Origin: Escherichia coli
GTDB lineage: Bacteria > Pseudomonadota > Gammaproteobacteria > Enterobacterales > Enterobacteriaceae
Assembly: GCF_050320075.1 (NCBI RefSeq)
Contig: NZ_CP190018.1
DNA: 64,000 nt
Strand: one strand, 5' to 3'
Position 1 is the stretch's first letter. The number at the start of each line of letters is the position of its first letter. Below are positions 1 through 13,871 of the stretch, piece after piece. The position numbers were made by a program, and so were the translations under genes. Under the pieces are notes generated by a model. It had not been told where the DNA came from and ran no database searches. It worked only from the letters and a program-made list of their open reading frames with translations.

Positions 1-2
1 AT

Positions 3-155
3 AACGTTAAGGGCGTTGCAGAGGGTTCTAAGGCCATCAGAATCACAACGGACCAACTGGAACTACTCAAAGCACAGTCCGCAGTAGCAGGTTGCTCAAT
101 GATTCAGGTGTTAAGCGCAAAGGTCCATCAATTAGCGGATAGGCTGGGGGTTTAA
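3..155 (+). CDS. 3' end of an unknown ORF running in from upstream of the window (partial, about 50 codons visible)
   Basis: Open frame from position 3 with no stop until TAA at 153-155; that stop overlaps the ATG at 155 of the next ORF (TAATG). Not in the ORF track because it has no start inside the window. Confidence 0.3.
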   Translation, partial: NVKGVAEGSKAIRITTDQLELLKAQSAVAGCSMIQVLSAKVHQLADRLGV

Positions 156-580
156 TGCTATGCACATTTGATTATCATGCGTTTTATCGCCATAGAGGCC
201 ACCTTGTCCGTGAGAATAGCGGAACATGGAAAGATTTAACTCGTAATGCTGAACCCTTCACACACCAGCAATTAAAATCCCGCTTCTCCAGATGGAAGAA
301 TGCACCAGCAGATACTGGTGATTTTGAGATTATCCATACCTTCGATTATGCCTCAGAAGATGACCTTCACGATGCAATTAAGCTGATTGAAGACTTCAAT
401 ACCTCAGAAGATGTGGATGGTGACAAATATAAATCCCGTGGTAACCGCTATAACCGTGATGATATCACTCAGGCCATAAATGCTGGTCAATCTCAGCGAT
501 ACATTACAGAAAAATATGGTATTTCACGGAGACAGTATTTCTACGTTAAATCATTGATTAATAAAGACAATTCAAAATAA
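155..580 (+). CDS. hypothetical protein, 141 aa, with a C-terminal helix-turn-helix-like segment
   Basis: ORF-track ORF; ATG overlaps the upstream stop (TAATG); C-terminal stretch DDITQAINAGQSQRYITEKYGISRRQYFYV resembles a DNA-binding HTH; AT-rich codon usage like the rest of the element. Confidence 0.5.
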   Translation: MLCTFDYHAFYRHRGHLVRENSGTWKDLTRNAEPFTHQQLKSRFSRWKNAPADTGDFEIIHTFDYASEDDLHDAIKLIEDFNTSEDVDGDKYKSRGNRYNRDDITQAINAGQSQRYITEKYGISRRQYFYVKSLINKDNSK

Positions 581-717
581 CCATCTCAGTAACGGTAGAA
601 TGCACTTTACAGGCAGAGTTGCACCTTAATTTGATAAATTACCTTACCAGCCAGTGCAACTCCCTCTGTAACCCGCATGATTACTGGTCTCAGAATGGCT
701 ATTTTAAGAGGTCTGAG

Positions 718-1065
718 ATGTGTTTTGTAGGAGATTTAAAAATGAACAACTTCCCATTACAGATTTTCGTTGATAACGACACCGCTATGATGGTGCAAAG
801 CTTCAGTGATGCAGGTATTAGCATTGATTTTGACAGGCTGTTAAAGCTAATGGCTGATAATGAAGAAAACGTCTCTGACTTTATTCACTCGGTGGAGTTT
901 AACGAGCCTCGAATGATGTTACCAATTACAGACAGTAATATGAAAAGATTGGTTATTGAGCAAACGAACAAATACAGTATTTCCCCAGAGCAATTTTTGA
1001 AAGGTGCTGTGACAATCCTGTACAGCGATAATATTTTGGTTACGGATTCCGTGAGGGTTCACTAA
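718..1065 (+). CDS. hypothetical protein, about 115 aa (alternative start at 742)
   Basis: ORF-track ORF 619..1065 begins at a TTG; a better start is ATG 718 preceded by AAGAGG (706-711), or ATG 742 preceded by GGAG. No recognisable motif. Confidence 0.45.
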   Translation: MCFVGDLKMNNFPLQIFVDNDTAMMVQSFSDAGISIDFDRLLKLMADNEENVSDFIHSVEFNEPRMMLPITDSNMKRLVIEQTNKYSISPEQFLKGAVTILYSDNILVTDSVRVH

Positions 1066-1142
1066 TGGGCTTAATAATTGCTTGGACGTTGCTTGGCTTA
1101 TTTGTTGGTTGCTGGGTAGGCAGCACAGTAAATAGAAATTGA
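1065..1142 (+). CDS. candidate 25-aa hydrophobic micro-protein (MGLIIAWTLLGLFVGCWVGSTVNRN)
   Basis: ATG at 1065-1067 overlaps the TAA stop of the preceding ORF (TAATG); a single predicted transmembrane stretch followed by a polar tail; too short to appear in the ORF track. Confidence 0.3.
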   Translation: MGLIIAWTLLGLFVGCWVGSTVNRN

Positions 1143-1166
1143 TGTTACCAATCTGTTAAAAAGCTG

Positions 1167-1195
1167 TTGACAAATAACCTTAAGCATGAGATGAT
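1167..1195 (+). promoter_or_regulatory. sigma70-like promoter candidate (TTGACA, 17-bp spacer, TGn-GATGAT)
   Basis: Perfect -35 hexamer TTGACA at 1167-1172, 17-bp spacer, TG at 1187-1188 and a weak -10 GATGAT at 1190-1195; followed immediately by a short GAGAG/CTCTC hairpin and a T-run. Confidence 0.35.
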
Positions 1196-1359
1196 GGTAA
1201 TAGGGGAGAGCAACTCTCTCTTATTTTTCTTTCAAAATAATCCGATGGATGGATATTCTGAATTGGAAAGGTGCAATGCTTTTCGTCATGGCCTTTCAGT
1301 TTAGTCTGAGAGGCTATCTCAAAAAGTGCTTAATCATTCATTGAACCCTTTACAGCTTT

Positions 1360-1388
1360 GCCCTAACTCATGATTAGGGCTTTCTTTA
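1360..1388 (+). terminator. intrinsic-terminator-like hairpin (GCCCTAA / TTAGGGC) followed by TTTCTTT
   Basis: Perfect 7-bp inverted repeat at 1360-1366 and 1374-1380 with a 7-nt loop, then a U-rich tract. Confidence 0.4.
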
Positions 1389-1636
1389 AGAGTTTTTAAA
1401 CAGAGCTTTTAAAGAAAGTTTTTCCTGAAACTTCGTTAACGTTAAAGCAAACCTTCAAAGCCCTTCACAGATGAGGATGATTCCATGAATATCCGAATCA
1501 CCTATGTTTAGGGCTTTTTTCAGCTTTTAAAAAGCATACTTGGCAAACGCCTTTTAAGCCTCTTCTAAGTTCGAGGATGTCAGGTGTGCTTTTTAAAAAC
1601 TGAAACATAAATTATCTTAGAAGAGGAAAGGTATTA

Positions 1637-2341
1637 ATGGCTATCCGTGATGAAAATGAAATGATTATTGAAAACAAACCAAGTGCACTTGATATTCACG
1701 AATTAAGTTTGCGTGAATCTTTTGATAGAGCTTGGCGGGAATCACACGAAGTAAATAAAGGTCCATATATTCCACCAGAACCACTCGAGATTCCAAGAGT
1801 TGAAATTGATTTTTCTATGAACGAACGGTGTGAACTTGATTTGAAGTTGAAGCTACAACGCCGATATTTCCAAGCTATTAAAGACTCTCAAGAAGCAATG
1901 AGAAGTGTTTATGAGAAAATTCAGTCCAAGCTTGAAGACGAAATTGACGAAATGGCTATTTTGATGGAGCTTCAAACCAATCCTTATGCTTATTTCTCTC
2001 GACTAGACCGTGACGGTTGGGGGTATGACCCTGTAGAGATTGGTAAAGTGATTGCAGATTTACCAGAAGGTCAAAGGGTTATTCGTACGGAAAGGGCCAT
2101 CAGAGCGCCACATCAACTGTCTCTAATTGTTGCTGATAAATCACAAGCTGAGCTTGAAGAAATTGCCAAAGAGAAACTGATGAAAGCAAGAGAAAATGAG
2201 ATTAATTTGCTGAAATCAAGACTGGCTAAGCTGATTAGTGACCATCAAGCGCTGGCTAAGGAGTACCGTCAAGAGTTGGCACAGATTATCAGCTTCAATG
2301 ATTTTCTGAGTGTTCCACGAGAATTTAGCAAGGCTGTTTGA
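1637..2341 (+). CDS. hypothetical acidic protein, 234 aa
   Basis: Strong RBS (AGAGGAAAGG) 7 nt upstream of the ATG; glutamate- and lysine-rich with an apparently helical C-terminal half; no motif recognised. Confidence 0.6.
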   Translation: MAIRDENEMIIENKPSALDIHELSLRESFDRAWRESHEVNKGPYIPPEPLEIPRVEIDFSMNERCELDLKLKLQRRYFQAIKDSQEAMRSVYEKIQSKLEDEIDEMAILMELQTNPYAYFSRLDRDGWGYDPVEIGKVIADLPEGQRVIRTERAIRAPHQLSLIVADKSQAELEEIAKEKLMKARENEINLLKSRLAKLISDHQALAKEYRQELAQIISFNDFLSVPREFSKAV

Positions 2342-2364
2342 TTATGAATTAAAAGAGGTGATTA

Positions 2365-2583
2365 ATGTATGAAGACCGTTTGGAAACTATCAAGGCAGTT
2401 TGTGAAAAACTTAAAAACCAACCACGTAAACCAAAAACGGTAAAGAGTAAGCATCAGCCTGTCACCTCAAACAGCAAAATAAAGATTCGCAAAATTCCTT
2501 CGTGGTGCATTGACCGTATTCCGGTTGGTTCAAGAATTATTCGTGAAGATGGTGATTATCATTGGGTATCAGTTGTTGGTTAG
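2365..2583 (+). CDS. hypothetical small basic protein, 72 aa
   Basis: RBS AAAGAGGTGA upstream of the ATG; lysine/arginine-rich; followed by an intrinsic terminator. Confidence 0.5.
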   Translation: MYEDRLETIKAVCEKLKNQPRKPKTVKSKHQPVTSNSKIKIRKIPSWCIDRIPVGSRIIREDGDYHWVSVVG

Positions 2584-2598
2584 TTAGTAAAAATCTAC

Positions 2599-2638
2599 GG
2601 GAGAGATTATCGAGTGATATCGGTAGCTCTCCCTTTTT
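2599..2638 (+). terminator. rho-independent terminator
   Basis: GGGAGAG (2599-2605) pairs with CTCTCCC (2627-2633), followed by TTTTT. Confidence 0.55.
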
Positions 2639-2671
2639 CGTATATGAACACTTAAGAGGTGAAAAATATGA

Positions 2672-4804
2672 ATGAGCAAATTCACAGTTGATAGTTTTAT
2701 CGTTGAATTAAGCTTCAATGAAAACATTATTAAGGGCTTGCAAAGAGTTGAAAAGGCAGCTTTGCAGTCAGCACAAAGAATTGAAAAGAACCTAAATAAA
2801 GGTTTCAGGATTAATACAAAGCAGCTTGATAGTAATTTAACGGCTTCTTTAGGGCAGCTTGAAAGGAAGTTTAATAAGGCCTTTGACAAGATTGAACAGA
2901 GAGCAAGAAATACTAAAGCTTTCCAGTTTACCACCAGATTTAATGACACTGTTAATCCTCCAAAACAACCGAGACAGCCACGAATTAGCGGCAACAGAGC
3001 AATCACAGCAGCTTACTCAGCGAATATGAGCAAGCTAAAAGGCTTTGACCCTATTTTGCAGAAATACATCAAATCTCAGTTTTACGGGCTATCTGCTAAA
3101 GCCGGTTCAATGGATTCTTCAAAATTCAATGAGAAGTTAGCTCAGTTAAACGCTTCAGTCAGAGAAGCAATTGCTAAAGCCAGAGGTCATACATCCACCA
3201 GCATTAATGGTGACAGAGCAGCTAATAGTCTTGATAACCTGTCTTCAGCAGCAGTTAAAACAGCAGGTGCATTTATCTCAATGCAGGCTGTATTAGCCAG
3301 TTATCAGAAGATTATGGAAATTGGTTTACAGCGTGCAAGTGCTGAACGTTCAATTGATTTCGTATTTGATAAAGATGCAGGTCAAGTAAAAGAGTTCACA
3401 AAGTCATTAGCTCAAACAACGGGTTTAGATATCGCTGAACTGCAATCACAGTTTGCTGGTTTTGGTGCTTCAGCTAAAGAGTCTATGGGCATTCAAGGTT
3501 CTGAAGAACTTTTTAAAAATATGATTGGCTATGCTCGTCTGATGGGGAGAAGTGAAGAAGAGATTAAGCGAGCACTGACAGCATTATCACAGATGGCTGG
3601 TAAGGGTCAGGTTATGGCTGAAGAGCTTAAGGGGCAATTAGCTGAAGCTGTTCCTGGTATGGTTCAGGTATTCGCTAAAGCAACCGGAAGGAATGAACAA
3701 GAGCTATTTGATGCCATGAAGAAGGGGGCTTTAAAATCTGCCGATACTCTTCAGAAGGTCACTCAGGAACTGAATAAACAAATCACCGCTAAAGGTGGCT
3801 GGAAAGCTATTTCAGAAAGTACACAGGCACAACTAGGGAACCTGAAAAACTCTTGGAATACCACGCTTGATAGTATCTTCAGAGGTTCTGAAGATGGTCT
3901 GCAAGATTTTACAAGAAGCTTAACAACGCTTTTAAACGCTCTTGGTGGAAGTGGTAAAAGTCTTGGTGAATCTCTTGGTAGTCTCATGACTTCTATGTCA
4001 CATGGTGTCGATTCATTGACTGATATCAGCTACAGGGTAAGAGCATTCTTCGATGAGGTGACATTAGCTTACCGTTCACTAAATGACACTCAGAAAAAAA
4101 TTGTTGATGGTTTATCTGATGGGTTAATTGATGGTTTGAAGATGCTTGCCGTAGCTGTTACTGCTCAAAAGGCTGCAAATGTAGCTGGAGGCTTGTTAAA
4201 CCTTGCAAATGCTGTTACTTCATTCGGTGATGCTGTTAATAAAGCTAAAGCTGGCAAGGCTGGTTCTTCAGGTGGTGCGCTAAATAAAGTTGGTAGAGTT
4301 GTTCTTTATGCTGAGTTGGTGAACTTTGCTCTTGATAATTTAAACCCTGAAGCGGCTAAGAATCCGAACTTACACCAATCAGGTATTGGAACAGAGACAA
4401 ACTTCAACCCTGAATACAAAGGCGATTCATCTAAACCAAACCAAATTAATGATGGATGGGCTAAGATTGGTAGTTCTATCGCTGACTGGTTTAATGGTGC
4501 GGCTAATAAAATTGCTAACTTCCAAGACCCGATGAATAACTTTGTTAATAACACACAATCAACTCCACCAGCTATCACAGGTGACATGGTTAATAGCAAT
4601 GCTCAACTTGCTATGGCTGTATCAGAGTTAGGAAGAAAGGTAGACGCTTTAACAGTAGAAGCTAAGAAGCCTTTATCAGTTAATATCAAAGGTGAAGCAA
4701 TTGTTAGACCGGATGAACCAGCTTTCTTTACTTTCAATCAATCAGCTAATGACCAGTTCACGCAGGATATGCTCTTAAGTTCAAGCTATCCAGAGGAAGA
4801 ATGA
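2672..4804 (+). CDS. phage tail tape-measure-domain protein (TMP-like), 710 aa
   Basis: RBS AAGAGGTG upstream; helical, alanine/glycine/lysine-rich; the segment ALTALSQMAGKGQVMAEELKGQLAEAVPGMVQVFAKATGRNEQELFDAMKKGALKSADTLQKV matches, from memory, the conserved core of phage tape-measure proteins. Confidence 0.6.
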   Translation: MSKFTVDSFIVELSFNENIIKGLQRVEKAALQSAQRIEKNLNKGFRINTKQLDSNLTASLGQLERKFNKAFDKIEQRARNTKAFQFTTRFNDTVNPPKQPRQPRISGNRAITAAYSANMSKLKGFDPILQKYIKSQFYGLSAKAGSMDSSKFNEKLAQLNASVREAIAKARGHTSTSINGDRAANSLDNLSSAAVKTAGAFISMQAVLASYQKIMEIGLQRASAERSIDFVFDKDAGQVKEFTKSLAQTTGLDIAELQSQFAGFGASAKESMGIQGSEELFKNMIGYARLMGRSEEEIKRALTALSQMAGKGQVMAEELKGQLAEAVPGMVQVFAKATGRNEQELFDAMKKGALKSADTLQKVTQELNKQITAKGGWKAISESTQAQLGNLKNSWNTTLDSIFRGSEDGLQDFTRSLTTLLNALGGSGKSLGESLGSLMTSMSHGVDSLTDISYRVRAFFDEVTLAYRSLNDTQKKIVDGLSDGLIDGLKMLAVAVTAQKAANVAGGLLNLANAVTSFGDAVNKAKAGKAGSSGGALNKVGRVVLYAELVNFALDNLNPEAAKNPNLHQSGIGTETNFNPEYKGDSSKPNQINDGWAKIGSSIADWFNGAANKIANFQDPMNNFVNNTQSTPPAITGDMVNSNAQLAMAVSELGRKVDALTVEAKKPLSVNIKGEAIVRPDEPAFFTFNQSANDQFTQDMLLSSSYPEEE

Positions 4805-4967
4805 TTTCTTATATATCCGTGTGCTACGTGATTTCTTCTGAACAGATATACCCACTAAAAATTATTTTTTACGTAGCTCACGCTTAACAGAGAAAATACT
4901 TATATATCAAAGGCTTGGTTAAAAATGATTAAAATACACTAAGCCTTTGAAATCAAAGGAGAATTTA

Positions 4968-5741
4968 ATGATTTACTCTAATCAGATTCGTTACAGTGGT
5001 AAAGATGGCGTTTACTTTCATCTACAAGGCCAGCCAGATAATTTCTTGTCACTATCAGCTACTGAGAACATGGAATTTGACAGCCCTATGATGGTTACCA
5101 CTCAAAATATGCAATCAGGGCAGACTGTCACAGATAATGTAATGCGTTCACCCAGAACTATTTCAATCAGTGGTGTGGTTGTAGTTGGTGAATCCGGTAG
5201 TATCCTTATCTCAAGAGATAATAAGCTGGTGGAAAACTTCATAGACACTCTTGAAAACTGGCGTGACCAGAAGCAAATTATCTCAGTTGTCTGTAAAGAT
5301 GGTATTAAGATTGACGACTCAATTATTACAAACTTTAAAGCCTCTAAAGATGTTGGTATTGCCAATGGTCTTAGAATCCAATTAACTTTTCAGGAAATTA
5401 ACTTTAAAGCTATTGTGGGTCAGACTGATATCTCGGCTGCGACCGGAAGGACTTCTACCACAAGTGATGGTGGTGCTACCAGTAAAAAGAATACAGGGAA
5501 CACTACGACAAGCTTAGGTAACGGTATGTTGATGTGTCAGGAGCTATATAATCGCTCTACGAGTGAACTTACTAATGAGCAACTTCAAGCCCGTATCAAT
5601 TGTGGTAAAAATGTCAGAGTTAAGAACGGAAAAAGCACCTTCTCAGATGCCGCTAATGAGCAAGCTTCAAAGGTGCTTAATAATGCTGGTACAGGTAGTA
5701 CTTTGAAGAAGTATTCTGTTAATCCTAACAAGCGATACTGA
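4968..5741 (+). CDS. hypothetical protein, 257 aa; possibly a distal-tail-like protein, judged only by position after the tape-measure gene
   Basis: ORF-track ORF 4947..5741 begins at a TTG; preferred start is ATG 4968 preceded by AAGGAG. The N-terminal half looks beta-strand-rich and the C-terminal half is Ser/Thr/Gly/Asn-rich. Confidence 0.5.
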
Positions 5742-5755
5742 CGATAGAATCTCAA

Positions 5756-7279
5756 CTATATGATAACCTCATCAACATCTATTAAACCCCTCTCAGTGAC
5801 TTCAGAAAGCGACTGTATAGCCTCTGTAACGTTGTCTGAGGGGTTTTCTGTTATTGGTAAGGTGATTGCTTTACCGTTGTGAAAAGTTACTTTACAGCGA
5901 CGTTTAGCAGTATTTAAAACGACCTCTTTAACAGCACTTTTGATTATCAGTTGTGCTTCAATCCTTCCCGCCTTTGTAGTCAAGTCACAATCAGACAAAC
6001 AACCCACATCAATAGATTTAAGGCGTTGTGTCTCCTTCTCGATATCCGCATCAACTTGTGATAGCTCATTCTTTAGTTGTCTTAGTTTGCTGGTAATAGC
6101 GGACAAGTCTTCAATTTCAAGTGATAGCTGTACCAGCTTTTCAATATTGCTTGAGATGTGTTCACGGTGTAGCTTCAGTGTGTCTATGGTATTCGTCATA
6201 TCGCTATCAAATCGGTCAAGACGAGATAGCAGGGCAAGCAATGTACCATCGGTTTGCTTACGTGAAAGTCCTTTAGCACTACAACGGTTTTCATTACGAA
6301 GAGGACAACGATAAATCCCGTTTCTTGTATCGCTAAAGCCTGTGATAATCAAAGCATGACCACATTCAGAACAACGGATAACACCTTTGAAAAGATTCAC
6401 AGCCATTGGCTTATCTGAAGCAGGTTTTCTACCGTAACGAGCATATGATAGTTGTTGAACTTTGTAGAATGTTGTTTCATCTATAATTGCAGGATAATAA
6501 CCAGATATCTCCTCACAGCCTTTAGGTGTGAAGTAACCAATTACAGAGCGATTCTTCAAAAGGTCTTGCACTGAGGTTTGACCAAACTTACCTGCTTTGT
6601 ACTGGTTAAGCGTCTGGTGACCTTCAGCATTAAGAGTTCTGACAATCTCCCAGATAGACTTACCCTCTAACCGTAGCTGAAAGCACCTCTTCACAGTCTC
6701 CACTTTCTCAGGTATCACAGAGAAGCTTTTACGGTCATCATTAAGCTTAAGCCATGCAGGACAACGCCTAGAAATCTTGATACCAGCTTTAGCAGCTTCT
6801 TTCTTTGCATCCCATGCAGCTTGTATACGCTCAGCCTTACGTAATGATTCCTCATGCGCCCTTTGCATTATCAAAATGCTTTTAATCAGAGCTAACGGGT
6901 CTTTAAGAGATTCCCTTGTGTAATGTTCACCATCGGACAGGGTGACTACATCTACACCAGAGCGAAGAATGTTTCTGAGTAGCTCACTTGCTTGGTCTAC
7001 GTCCTGACGTGAGAGACGGTCTAAACTCTCGATTAGTAGTGTATCACCAGCTTTAACAAGCCCTTTCTCGATAGCGGTTAAAAAGTCACCTAAGCCACCT
7101 TTCAAGTGCTTACCAGTGAACCCGCTAACGCCTAAATCACGAAAAGTAAGGGATTCATCCAGATAGTACTCAGGATGAGCCTTAAGCCAATCAGTGACCA
7201 TCTTAGCCTGTCGTCTTAATGAGTCGCCTCTGGATTGCTTCTCAGATGAAAACCGGATGTAACTGATTGCACGTTTCAT
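5756..7279 (-). CDS. large serine recombinase (phage-type serine integrase), 507 aa
   Basis: N-terminal resolvase-type catalytic domain (ISYIRFSSEKQSRGDSL...LLIESLDRLSRQ), a central recombinase region, a cysteine-rich zinc-ribbon-like motif (CSECGHALIITG...YRCPLRNENRCSAKG) and a coiled-coil C-terminus; convergent with the cargo genes and adjacent to the host junction. Confidence 0.85.
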   Translation of the reverse strand: MKRAISYIRFSSEKQSRGDSLRRQAKMVTDWLKAHPEYYLDESLTFRDLGVSGFTGKHLKGGLGDFLTAIEKGLVKAGDTLLIESLDRLSRQDVDQASELLRNILRSGVDVVTLSDGEHYTRESLKDPLALIKSILIMQRAHEESLRKAERIQAAWDAKKEAAKAGIKISRRCPAWLKLNDDRKSFSVIPEKVETVKRCFQLRLEGKSIWEIVRTLNAEGHQTLNQYKAGKFGQTSVQDLLKNRSVIGYFTPKGCEEISGYYPAIIDETTFYKVQQLSYARYGRKPASDKPMAVNLFKGVIRCSECGHALIITGFSDTRNGIYRCPLRNENRCSAKGLSRKQTDGTLLALLSRLDRFDSDMTNTIDTLKLHREHISSNIEKLVQLSLEIEDLSAITSKLRQLKNELSQVDADIEKETQRLKSIDVGCLSDCDLTTKAGRIEAQLIIKSAVKEVVLNTAKRRCKVTFHNGKAITLPITENPSDNVTEAIQSLSEVTERGLIDVDEVII

Positions 7280-7346
7280 TGTTCACCTCACCAATAGCAG
7301 TTGGGCTTGTACCAACCCCTAGATTGTATCGCTTTAGATGGTGTAT

Positions 7347-7841
7347 TTAAACGTGTCTAATAAAAATCACCCGATTAACGCCGCGCTGATGTAAACCGCG
7401 ATTAAGCGTTTGTTCCTCTTCCCCTTTGGCGAAAAACTGTGGATGGCGGACTTCCACACCATAATTAAATTCGCCGGGAAGGGAATCGAGAAAATGCCAA
7501 AGCGCAGGCAGATCCCGTGGGCCAAATGTGGCAGGCAGTTGCAGCCAGTATTGCCCAATGCGCGGCGCTAACGGTGACATGCGGGTCAAAAATTCAGTCA
7601 CTAAATCATCGCAATGCCGTAATGCTGCCTGATGCGAAATGGTCGCCGGAAACTTAAAACAGAAGCGAAAATTATCTGTGGTCTGCTCACGCCAGCGCAG
7701 GACAACCTCGGATTTCGGCAGGGCGTAAAGCGTGGTGTTGCCCTCCACACAGTTAAAGTGGCGGGCATACTCTTCAAGGCTGGTGATCCCCAACCGCACC
7801 CATTTAGGATGCGACCATTGCGGCAGACCGATGTAAATCAT
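7347..7841 (-). pseudogene. yecE: yecE (DUF72 family), 5' portion only: reading frame interrupted by the insertion
   Basis: N-terminus [29 protein letters not shown] matches recalled YecE; the frame stops after 164 codons (intact YecE is about 272 aa from memory) exactly where GC-rich host sequence changes to the AT-rich element. Confidence 0.7.
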
Positions 7842-12382: not shown

Positions 12383-12985
12383 TTATACCGCCTCGGTCAG
12401 TTCCGGCTGAGGCGTTTCCACTCCCTCCGCATGAATCAACACCAAACCCGGATGATGCCACAAACTGGCTGGCGTGACGGTTTTACGCTCCCACGGAATA
12501 GAACCCAGGAACCAGAATTTCCAGAAAGTGAGTTTTGCATTCGGATTGCTATTTAACAATTCTCCAAACGTCTCTATTTCACCCACCGGAATACATAGCG
12601 CCTCTTTATAAATATCAAAAACAAATTTTGAACAGAACTGGCGCGAAGATTCGTATTTAAAACCGGTGTGGTAAAGTTTGCGTAGCCGGGAGGGAACCTG
12701 TTCAACAATTCGTTGTTTTTGTTGTTCTGTCAGCCCAGCGTCTAATCGCTTTATAGCATAGCGTTGATTAGACGAACGTTTAATAAAACGAGATAGCGTG
12801 GTGATGGTTGAAAGGGGAACCCGGCTTTCTGCAACCAGGAAGTCTTCACCGTTATGACCGATAATGATCCCGACGTGATTACTCCAGCAATTTGATGCAG
12901 CTGATATTTGACCAAATAAGGCAGCACCTATACATGTAAAGACGATATCTCCAATTTCATATTCAGCAGGGTAATTAATATTCAC
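12383..12985 (-). CDS. yebB: DUF830-family protein YebB
   Basis: ORF-track ORF trimmed to a GTG start ([16 protein letters not shown]...) that gives about 200 aa; start assignment is uncertain. Confidence 0.7.
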
Positions 12986-13259
12986 GTTGTCATTCCATTG
13001 AAATAGATACGAATATACGTAATAGCATAAAAAATTTATTTTTTCAGGAGGCGCAATGTATATTTTTATTACGCATTTCTTCACTGAATATGTAATATTA
13101 AAATATTTGCTTCCAATATAACCTGTAGAACAAATTATACTGTGCCATTTTTCAGATCATCGGGACACCTCGCAAGTTTTCTTCATCCTTCGCTGGATAT
13201 CTATCCAGCATTTTTTTATCATACAGCATTATCTTTGATTCATTACGCAGGAGCGTCAT

Positions 13260-13871
13260 GTGATAGGCAGACTCAGAGGCATCATCATTGAAAAACAACC
13301 CCCGCTGGTGTTAATTGAAGTGGGCGGCGTAGGCTATGAAGTGCATATGCCGATGACCTGTTTTTATGAACTCCCTGAAGCGGGTCAGGAAGCGATCGTT
13401 TTCACCCACTTTGTGGTGCGTGAAGACGCGCAACTGCTGTACGGTTTTAACAATAAACAAGAGCGCACATTGTTCAAAGAGTTGATCAAAACCAACGGCG
13501 TCGGCCCGAAGTTAGCGCTGGCGATCCTCTCCGGAATGTCAGCGCAGCAGTTCGTTAATGCCGTTGAGCGTGAAGAAGTGGGGGCACTGGTGAAACTGCC
13601 GGGTATTGGCAAAAAAACCGCCGAACGCTTGATTGTTGAAATGAAAGACCGATTTAAAGGTTTGCATGGCGATCTCTTTACGCCAGCCGCCGACCTGGTA
13701 CTCACGTCTCCTGCCAGCCCGGCGACCGACGATGCTGAACAAGAAGCGGTTGCCGCGCTGGTGGCGCTGGGCTATAAACCACAAGAAGCAAGCCGCATGG
13801 TGAGCAAAATCGCTCGCCCTGACGCCAGCAGTGAAACATTAATTCGCGAAGCCCTACGCGCCGCGTTATGA
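13260..13871 (+). CDS. ruvA: Holliday junction branch-migration complex subunit RuvA
   Basis: [28 protein letters not shown]. Confidence 0.95.

Follow-up and report, generated by a model that had tools for sequence, protein, structure and literature searches.

The window analysed here is a stretch of 64,000 nucleotides from a chromosome of Escherichia coli (NCBI RefSeq assembly GCF_050320075.1, contig NZ_CP190018.1). The gene at positions 4,968 to 5,741 is part of a chromosomal element of 12,232 bp, which is inserted precisely in the host gene yecE. Judged against the intact yecE of K-12, each of the two junctions carries AAAATCA as a 7-bp core. The GC content of the element is about 39%, the same as that of phage Felix O1. 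The gene is the final one before a convergent large serine recombinase that follows directly on the opposite strand, and it adjoins the 3' side of a gene for a tape measure protein (TMP; Table 1). Only the right part of the element lies in the window. The locus that holds all of it is called L001; L003, L004, L006-L008, L020 and similar labels denote other loci with coordinates of their own.

Table 1. Features of the element in the window (window positions; a dot stands for no strand)
Feature	Position	Strand	Properties and basis
Tube initiator (TI, Dit-like) gene	4968..5741	+	257 aa, ATG start, TGA stop; Pfam, PHROG and PDB matches
Shine-Dalgarno sequence of TI, AAGGAG	4956..4961	+	6 nt upstream of ATG; read from sequence
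TI N-terminal tube-like domain (aa 1-147)	4968..5408	+	AF2 model, Foldseek
TI S/T/G/N-rich linker (aa 148-187)	5409..5528	+	Composition, pLDDT
TI element-specific C-terminal domain (aa 188-257)	5529..5738	+	Low identity to phages, conserved among elements
Tape measure protein (TMP), partner of TI	2672..4804	+	710 aa; Pfam TMP_3 E=1e-18; phrog_4036 E=1e-79
TMP-TI gap (163 nt) with two hairpins (4805-4829/4871-4895; 4899-4919/4938-4958)	4805..4958	+	RNA fold z-score -4.7
p234, conserved core gene	1637..2341	+	In every element, about 26% identity, 29 invariant columns
p72, small conserved core gene directly upstream of TMP	2365..2583	+	In every element
Large serine recombinase (integrase)	5756..7279	-	507 aa; Resolvase, Recombinase and Zn_ribbon_recom domains; phrog_95 integrase E=2e-79
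attR core AAAATCA inside yecE	7363..7369	.	Comparison with intact K-12 yecE
Right 7.4 kb of the 12.2-kb element	1..7362	.	Left 4.9 kb outside the window

The gene product belongs to a well-characterized protein family. Pfam Dit_like (PF21821) matches amino acids 30-146 with 69.7 bits (E=3e-19, curated cut-off 24.2), and the PHROG family phrog_3721 covers the full length (E=5e-128). A search against solved structures matches amino acids 5-256 to PDB entry 9NDY_A, the 'Tube initiator protein (gp018)' of phage Bas63 (E=6e-114). These three matches show that the open reading frame (ORF) is not a chance one; together with the Shine-Dalgarno sequence and the recombinase next to it, they bear out an initial annotation that described a real gene, the last one before the integrase. 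The protein is 73% identical to Felix O1 ORF68 (NP_944906). No NCBIfam model matches it, and RefSeq annotates WP_054628062.1, a 'phage baseplate protein', at its coordinates in the source chromosome.

The gene product is almost certainly a Felixounavirus-type tube initiator. It is a new member of the known tube initiator/Dit_like family; as an annotation this is ordinary, and it is now resolved. The name 'tail tube initiator' (TI) is preferable to 'baseplate protein' or 'hypothetical'.

Searches with tblastn find TI homologues in 299 phage records, mainly of Escherichia, Salmonella, Shigella and Citrobacter phages and in records named Felixounavirus. A further, more distant set of homologues comes from Erwinia and Pectobacterium phage records. 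Some database labels deserve a remark: the records GU169904.1 and MG065664.1 ('Staphylococcus phage SA1' and 'Campylobacter phage A132') hold Felixounavirus sequence, and PP892526.1 has the taxonomy line of a Tequintavirus although its sequence is that of a Felixounavirus. Contamination or mislabelling is the probable cause in these records.

The role of the phage homologue is known in structural detail. In the baseplate of Bas63 (Escherichia phage JohannRWettstein) six copies of gp18 place their tube-like N-terminal domains on the trimeric hub, where the symmetry changes from 3-fold to 6-fold (PMC12609058). Gp18 starts the polymerization of the tube around the tape measure and extends a C-terminal arm of ~100 amino acids outward through the baseplate, next to the spacer protein (PMC12609058). 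TI is homologous to Bas63 gp18 and Felix O1 ORF68 over its full length, including the Dit_like tube-like N-terminal domain and a conserved S/T/G-rich linker. All three are encoded directly after a tape-measure gene. However, the phage proteins are encoded in a phage genome and TI on a 12-kb chromosomal element. In Felix O1 the genes for spacer, hub, spike and wedge proteins follow those for tape measure and TI, whereas here no spacer, hub or spike gene comes after TI. Furthermore, the TMP and TI genes overlap in the phages but are separated by a structured gap of 163 nt here, and the last ~70 amino acids of TI are only 27-46% identical to the phage proteins.

The initial annotation also suggested, from size and position, a distal-tail-like protein. 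This suggestion turns out to be correct, in its myophage form: the Dit_like match lies above threshold, the closest placed relative is a tube initiator, and the gene follows that for the tape measure. The siphophage distal tail proteins (Dit) of SPP1, TP901-1 and 80alpha share the fold superfamily of the N-terminal domain and the position between tube and tail tip, directly after the tape-measure gene. Yet their fold match to TI is weak (E about 5e-4). TI also lacks their galectin-type C-terminal domain and instead has a disordered part and a small helical domain. Moreover, the close homologues of TI are all found in contractile tails, and the homologous phages have a sheath.

The fold search points in the same direction. 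The AlphaFold model of TI has a mean pLDDT of 64 and is confident for the N-terminal domain over residues 14-143. As initially annotated, the N-terminus is rich in beta structure, with strands at 14-76 and 105-143 around a single helix (84-100). The best Foldseek match is 9ndy_A (E=3e-20). It is followed by tube initiators of the contractile systems XM1, Pam3, diffocin, phiCD508, Mu, E217, PhiTE, phi812, Pa193, pyocin R2 and A-1(L), at lower ranks by tube proteins, and then weakly by siphophage Dit chains (E about 5e-4 to 7.5e-4). Hence a search against Dit and receptor-binding folds, which the initial annotation had proposed, puts tube initiators on top. With the gene order as in intact phages, the reading as an accessory gene is refuted.

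The remainder of the protein consists of two different parts. The Ser/Thr/Gly/Asn enrichment that had been ascribed to the C-terminal half is real but concentrated in the linker: these residues make up 62.5% of positions 148-187, 37% of 188-257 and 31% of 1-147. The linker has a pLDDT below 50 and is predicted to be disordered; its residues K173, G177 and T181 are conserved. For residues 188-257 a small domain is predicted that is largely helical; two of its cysteines, C190 and C212, are conserved.

The three parts differ greatly in their similarity to Felix O1. In the N-terminal domain the window copy is 82% and two sister elements are 95-96% identical to the phage, and in the linker identity is 84-90%. 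The C-terminal arm of TI has the same length as the phage arm, but only 27-46% of its last ~70 residues are identical to Felix O1. Among most elements the same residues are 65-99% identical. The phage C-terminal domains are nearly identical to each other, as in Felix O1 and Bas63. A tblastn search with the C-terminal 74 amino acids of TI against 50,697 phage records yields no match above 44% identity. In contrast, all of the 120 best chromosomal homologue clusters carry the element type, whose identity to the phage version does not exceed 50%. Three types of C-terminal domain occur among the elements.

The ratio of nonsynonymous to synonymous divergence (dN/dS) among elements is 0.08-0.11 for the N-terminal domain, 0.09-0.26 for the linker and 0.14-0.19 for the C-terminal domain. 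Hence all three parts of TI are kept by selection. The N-terminal domain of one element differs from that of Felix O1 by a dS of only 0.29, which suggests continuing exchange with phages.

The tape measure has diverged from the phage protein except at its two ends. The window TMP is 25% identical to the 742-amino-acid TMP of Felix O1 in BLASTP, with the first ~45 residues and a C-terminal LLSSSYPEEE conserved. Across elements, overall identity to the phage TMP is 25-33%, while the first ~45 residues and a C-terminal (L/I)SS(S/A)(Y/F)PE(E/D) motif are kept. With 691-732 amino acids, all element TMPs are shorter than that of the phage. In Bas63 the last 25 residues of the TMP contact hub and spike (PMC12609058), and the C-terminal motif of the element TMPs falls within these modelled residues. 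One sister element has a frameshifted TMP gene (L004 11932-13997) together with an intact TI gene.

In the elements the gap between TMP and TI measures 150-235 nt. A 9-bp core of the first hairpin, GCTACGTGA/TCACGTAGC, is conserved in all five elements aligned, and the second hairpin ends at the ribosome-binding site of TI. A scan for promoters and terminators around the TI gene found sites no more numerous than in shuffled sequence, and Rfam has no match in positions 1-7500 of the window.

Elements of this kind are common. TI homologues with 67-100% nucleotide identity are found in 473 of 5,426 complete E. coli genomes (about 9%), always on the chromosome and in up to four places per genome. 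Salmonella, Shigella and E. albertii contribute TI protein clusters as well. Related elements occupy three or more insertion sites; the fifteen that we inspected lie at yecE, yciI/tonB and ymdF/wrbA. The order of the core genes is identical in all of them: a protein of ~236 amino acids, one of ~70 amino acids, TMP (691-732 amino acids), TI (256-262 amino acids) and the convergent serine recombinase. Variation is found at the end far from the integrase, which holds a 306-amino-acid protein, a resolvase-type recombinase of ~190 amino acids, or nothing. This comparison, which the initial annotation had called for, contradicts two of its labels. TI is neither 'cargo' nor an accessory (moron) gene next to an integrase; it belongs to the conserved core and is present in all fifteen elements, and the variable genes lie at the opposite end.

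Compared with the window copy, p234 is about 26% identical in other elements, p72 44-97%, TMP 43-93%, TI 70-91% and the recombinase 36-99.8%, the last of these tracking the insertion site. To judge from these values, the elements are mosaic. Among six elements the type of the TI C-terminal domain does not co-vary with the type of TMP, p72 or integrase; we find only mosaicism.

TMP and TI are the sole virion genes of the element. Pfam and PHROG scans as well as tblastn against Felix O1 find no capsid, portal, terminase, sheath, tube, hub, fibre or lysis gene. When all ORFs of the elements are compared with the whole Felix O1 genome by tblastn, only TMP and TI match, plus HNH endonucleases in some sister elements. 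The element that holds the TI gene is thus not a prophage, but a satellite-like element of ~12 kb with only two tail genes.

Two short non-coding segments of the element also have homologues in unique sequence of Felix O1. Segment A (L001 26205-26367, at 2.9 kb to the left of the window) lies upstream of a methyltransferase gene and is homologous to Felix O1 13289-13452. It recurs at L004 6235-6399, L007 4932-5094, L008 4718-4873 and L020 1780-1804. We placed the direct terminal repeat (DTR) of the phage at Felix O1 ~12770-13340, based on the annotated DTR of UAB_69, the identical 581-bp ends of I14.1 and the start and end positions of many GenBank records. With this placement, segment A straddles the right DTR boundary. 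Seven elements and the phages I14.1 and UAB_69 agree in every base of a 25-nt core of the segment, GATATTTTAAAATTCTGCAAAGGGG; in the phages this core is located 27-51 bp inside the end of the repeat.

Segment B (L001 26403-26460) is 58 nt long, lies about 60 nt upstream of the methyltransferase gene and matches the divergent promoter region of Felix O1 genes 40/41 with 86% identity. It is also present in L004, L007, L021, L023-L025 and L028. The segment contains a palindrome, GATATCC-N6-GGATATC, which is single-copy in the phage and in the element and may possibly be a binding site for a phage regulator. We infer that segment A is a candidate mimic of the packaging site and segment B a candidate regulatory mimic.

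An element of this family can also be found with its ends joined. From the two ends we predicted an attP junction of 33 nt, AACGTGTCTAATAAAAATCATCAAGGTCTAAAT. It occurs once in public metagenome contigs, in NODE-760 of ERZ1090866 (L020), which is 11,473 bp long and has a coverage of 6. This contig is a circular permutation of a whole element: attP lies in its interior, there is no chromosomal flank, and its two ends map side by side on the element. It begins with 43 nt of Nextera adapter and breaks near the iteron region of the element. NODE-760 shows that a joined form of such an element, circular or concatemeric, exists in nature.

The junction is absent from IMG/VR, whose relatives of the element TMP are prophage-type calls from isolate genomes and therefore uninformative on packaging. 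A comparison of the whole element with the phage records gives matches only to TI and to the 5' part of the TMP gene, so that none of the deposited 'phages' can be a packaged copy. We also considered head filling by whole numbers of units (7-8 x 10.8-12.2 kb in a head of about 86 kb, the size of a helper genome), which is uninformative for units this small.

By these comparisons the element shares coding and non-coding sequence only with Felixounavirus. It shows generic features of a satellite: an integrase, precise ends, an excised attP form and an incomplete set of virion genes. We consider it likely that the element is a satellite which depends on virulent Felixounavirus phages.

How such a satellite might use its two tail genes can be proposed by analogy, and we lean slightly towards the following mechanism. 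When a Felixounavirus infects the cell, the element would excise, replicate and be packaged via its copy of the terminal-repeat boundary. Its TMP and TI would be expressed, slot into helper hubs and nucleate helper tube and sheath. TMP would fit the helper through its phage-like N-terminus and the C-terminus that docks to hub and spike, TI through its phage-like N-terminal domain. The result would be chimeric tails with all other parts from the helper, probably 1.5-8 nm shorter than those of the phage (TMPs of 691-732 instead of 742 amino acids). The element-specific arm of TI would sit where the phage arm meets spacer and wedge, and there it could either mark satellite tails or disturb those of the helper. 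The arm is the likely point of discrimination or of interference with helper baseplate assembly.

Several observations weigh against this proposal. Neither a capsid-remodelling nor a small-terminase gene was found in the element, so that packaging would rest on one candidate cis site, and of this site only the right DTR boundary is mimicked; a mimic of the left boundary was not found. NODE-760 proves joined ends, not encapsidation, and neither phage records nor IMG/VR contigs carry the element as packaged DNA. No tail-assembly chaperone was recognized, and p234 and p72 resemble neither the Felix O1 chaperones in sequence nor chaperones in general in family and fold comparisons. The element genes other than TMP and TI have no homologues in Felix O1 by tblastn, except for the HNH genes of some elements. 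Finally, the divergent arm of TI could equally mean sabotage instead of productive assembly.

Satellites of virulent phages are known from Vibrio, namely PLE and PICMI. To our knowledge, satellite-encoded tape measures and chimeric tails have only been shown in 2025-26, for PLE. In V. cholerae the genes of PLE include those for a shorter TMP, a chaperone and a baseplate hub protein; these products are built into chimeric tails together with parts of phage ICP1, and transduction of PLE depends on its tmp gene (PMC11838301, PMC12987554). The element resembles PLE in four respects: a large serine recombinase, a shorter TMP of its own, one protein of the baseplate core, and a virulent myophage as helper (ICP1 for PLE, putative here). 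Both are also small islands, and for the element, too, chimeric tails are predicted. Nevertheless, the element is not a PLE. Host clade and helper differ, and the baseplate partner is the hub protein BhuB in PLE but a tube initiator here. The tails of PLE have been shown experimentally, whereas our element is known from sequence alone, which is a further point against the proposed mechanism. Pfam and PHROG scans of the element contain nothing suggestive of PLE core genes (RepA, TcaP etc.) or of the chaperone, though these scans did not include a direct comparison with PLE sequences.

PICMI, the satellites of virulent vibriophages (PMC10803314), are likewise small elements that lack capsid-remodelling genes and use a virulent helper. 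If our element is packaged at all, this would probably occur as multimers in full-size heads, which is a further likeness. In contrast to our element, with its serine recombinase, TMP and TI, PICMI are inserted beside fis, rely on AlpA, and possess three core genes but none for tail proteins. Hallmarks of PICI, cf-PICI and P4 (a tyrosine integrase with alpA and primase, capsid genes, or sid/psu/delta) were not detected in the element with Pfam and PHROG.

The main rival to a satellite with chimeric tails is a defence by decoy. TI, with or without TMP, would enter helper baseplates via its N-terminal domain, and the altered arm would block the attachment of wedge or spacer or the growth of the tube. 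Phage tails would then fail and the bacterial population would be protected, while TI and TMP would have no part in the transfer of the element. We regard this explanation as rather unlikely, but it has points in its favour. The C-terminal domain of TI is unlike those of all 249 phage homologues, which are nearly identical to each other, and the search for chaperone and capsid genes in the element gave none. Interference with tail assembly is also an established defence strategy, exemplified by PLE11 Rta and by the Tai systems (PMC11364771). However, nearly all elements retain an intact, full-length TMP with both phage-like ends, which exceeds what a decoy needs. The excised circle, like the mimicry of the terminal-repeat boundary, suggests mobilization that depends on a helper, and this requires working tails. 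Furthermore, PLE cannot do without genes of this kind in transduction. A decoy and a part in chimeric tails are not mutually exclusive.

It is improbable, though less so than the remaining alternatives, that the arm simply mirrors the helper. The element would then be the satellite of an unsampled Felixounavirus relative whose own TI carries the element-type C-terminal domain. The mosaic structure of the elements and their exchange of N-terminal domains with phages, evident from the low dS to Felix O1 in one element, are consistent with such a helper, and so are the three types of C-terminal domain. Yet none of the 299 phage records with a TI homologue contains the element-type domain, and the 25-nt terminal-repeat motif is identical to that of sequenced Felixounaviruses.

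Very unlikely, too, is a decaying prophage in which the two tail genes are functionless leftovers. Only two virion genes are left, and the TMP gene of one sister element is frameshifted, as might be seen in a remnant. But the compact architecture of 11-12 kb is constant at three insertion sites and in hundreds of genomes, every part of TI is under purifying selection, the ends are precise, an excised circular form is found, and the relatives are virulent phages without an integrase.

The least probable explanation is the one offered as an alternative by the initial annotation for the C-terminal half, an adhesin, fibre or host-range moron that binds the cell surface: the S/T/G/N-rich linker and one PHROG relative labelled 'tail fiber protein' fit it, but that match covers amino acids 27-181, which is the tube-like domain, the homologous region of Bas63 is an arm inside the solved baseplate, no fibre or receptor-binding fold or family is matched in Pfam or Foldseek, and the C-terminal domain is under purifying instead of diversifying selection.

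We thus return to the satellite with chimeric tails. It could be the first satellite family of a virulent coliphage and Salmonella phage lineage, present in about 9% of complete E. coli genomes: a family that has no head genes, mimics the terminal repeat, and brings its own TMP and a chimeric TI whose arm reprograms or sabotages the baseplate. This full statement we hold tentatively, with the chances close to balanced but leaning against it. In open-access papers and on bioRxiv we found no published description of a Felixounavirus satellite or of this element, which is not proof of absence. If true, it would be a second, independent origin of the chimeric-tail strategy known only from the Vibrio PLE, in a genetically tractable host.

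Among the classic typing phages of Salmonella are those of the Felix O1 type, which are also frequent in cocktails for biocontrol and therapy. Host range and the outcome of treatment would be affected if a common chromosomal element parasitizes or blocks such phages. In addition, a counterpart in E. coli and Salmonella would come with a solved helper baseplate, that of Bas63. This would make it possible to test how a satellite part inserts into the helper tail, what the arm of TI does, and how packaging at a terminal repeat is hijacked.

From the left, the element starts with a gene on the other strand for a 306-amino-acid protein without matches. Next come a Dam-like methyltransferase, which also has a helix-turn-helix domain, and a 322-amino-acid winged-helix protein. 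They are followed by several small proteins without assignment, and then by p234, p72, TMP, TI and the recombinase. For p234 there is no family or fold match: Pfam and PHROG find nothing, and with its AF2 model (pLDDT 65) Foldseek returns nothing below E=0.6. A PADLOC scan of the element for defence systems yields only a match to an orphan methyltransferase.

The winged-helix protein weakly matches replication initiators (phrog_270, E=2e-7), and its gene contains three 23-bp iterons in tandem (L001 27918-27986); iterons are also found at L007 6625-6715. Elements that differ in their initiator variant differ in the iteron sequence too, as would fit an origin located within the initiator gene.

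The genes at the variable end are located at L001 24490-25410 (minus strand), L003 5712-6287 and L004 5470-6039. The 306-amino-acid protein has no family, defence-system or PHROG match, and the variable end is a candidate place for cargo or defence genes. Small HNH endonuclease genes are present in some elements (L003 9155-9427, L006 8366-8653 and L008 8316-8603); their similarity to Felix O1 HNH genes is weak (29-48% over about 60 amino acids).

The insertion splits the host gene yecE (DUF72) into two pseudogene fragments, one at 7347-7841 of the window and one at L001 24055-24402. In some strains yecE is doubly occupied: a lambdoid prophage with a tyrosine integrase adjoins the integrase end of the element (L007 15380-17103; about 10800-12100 in L022 and L027).

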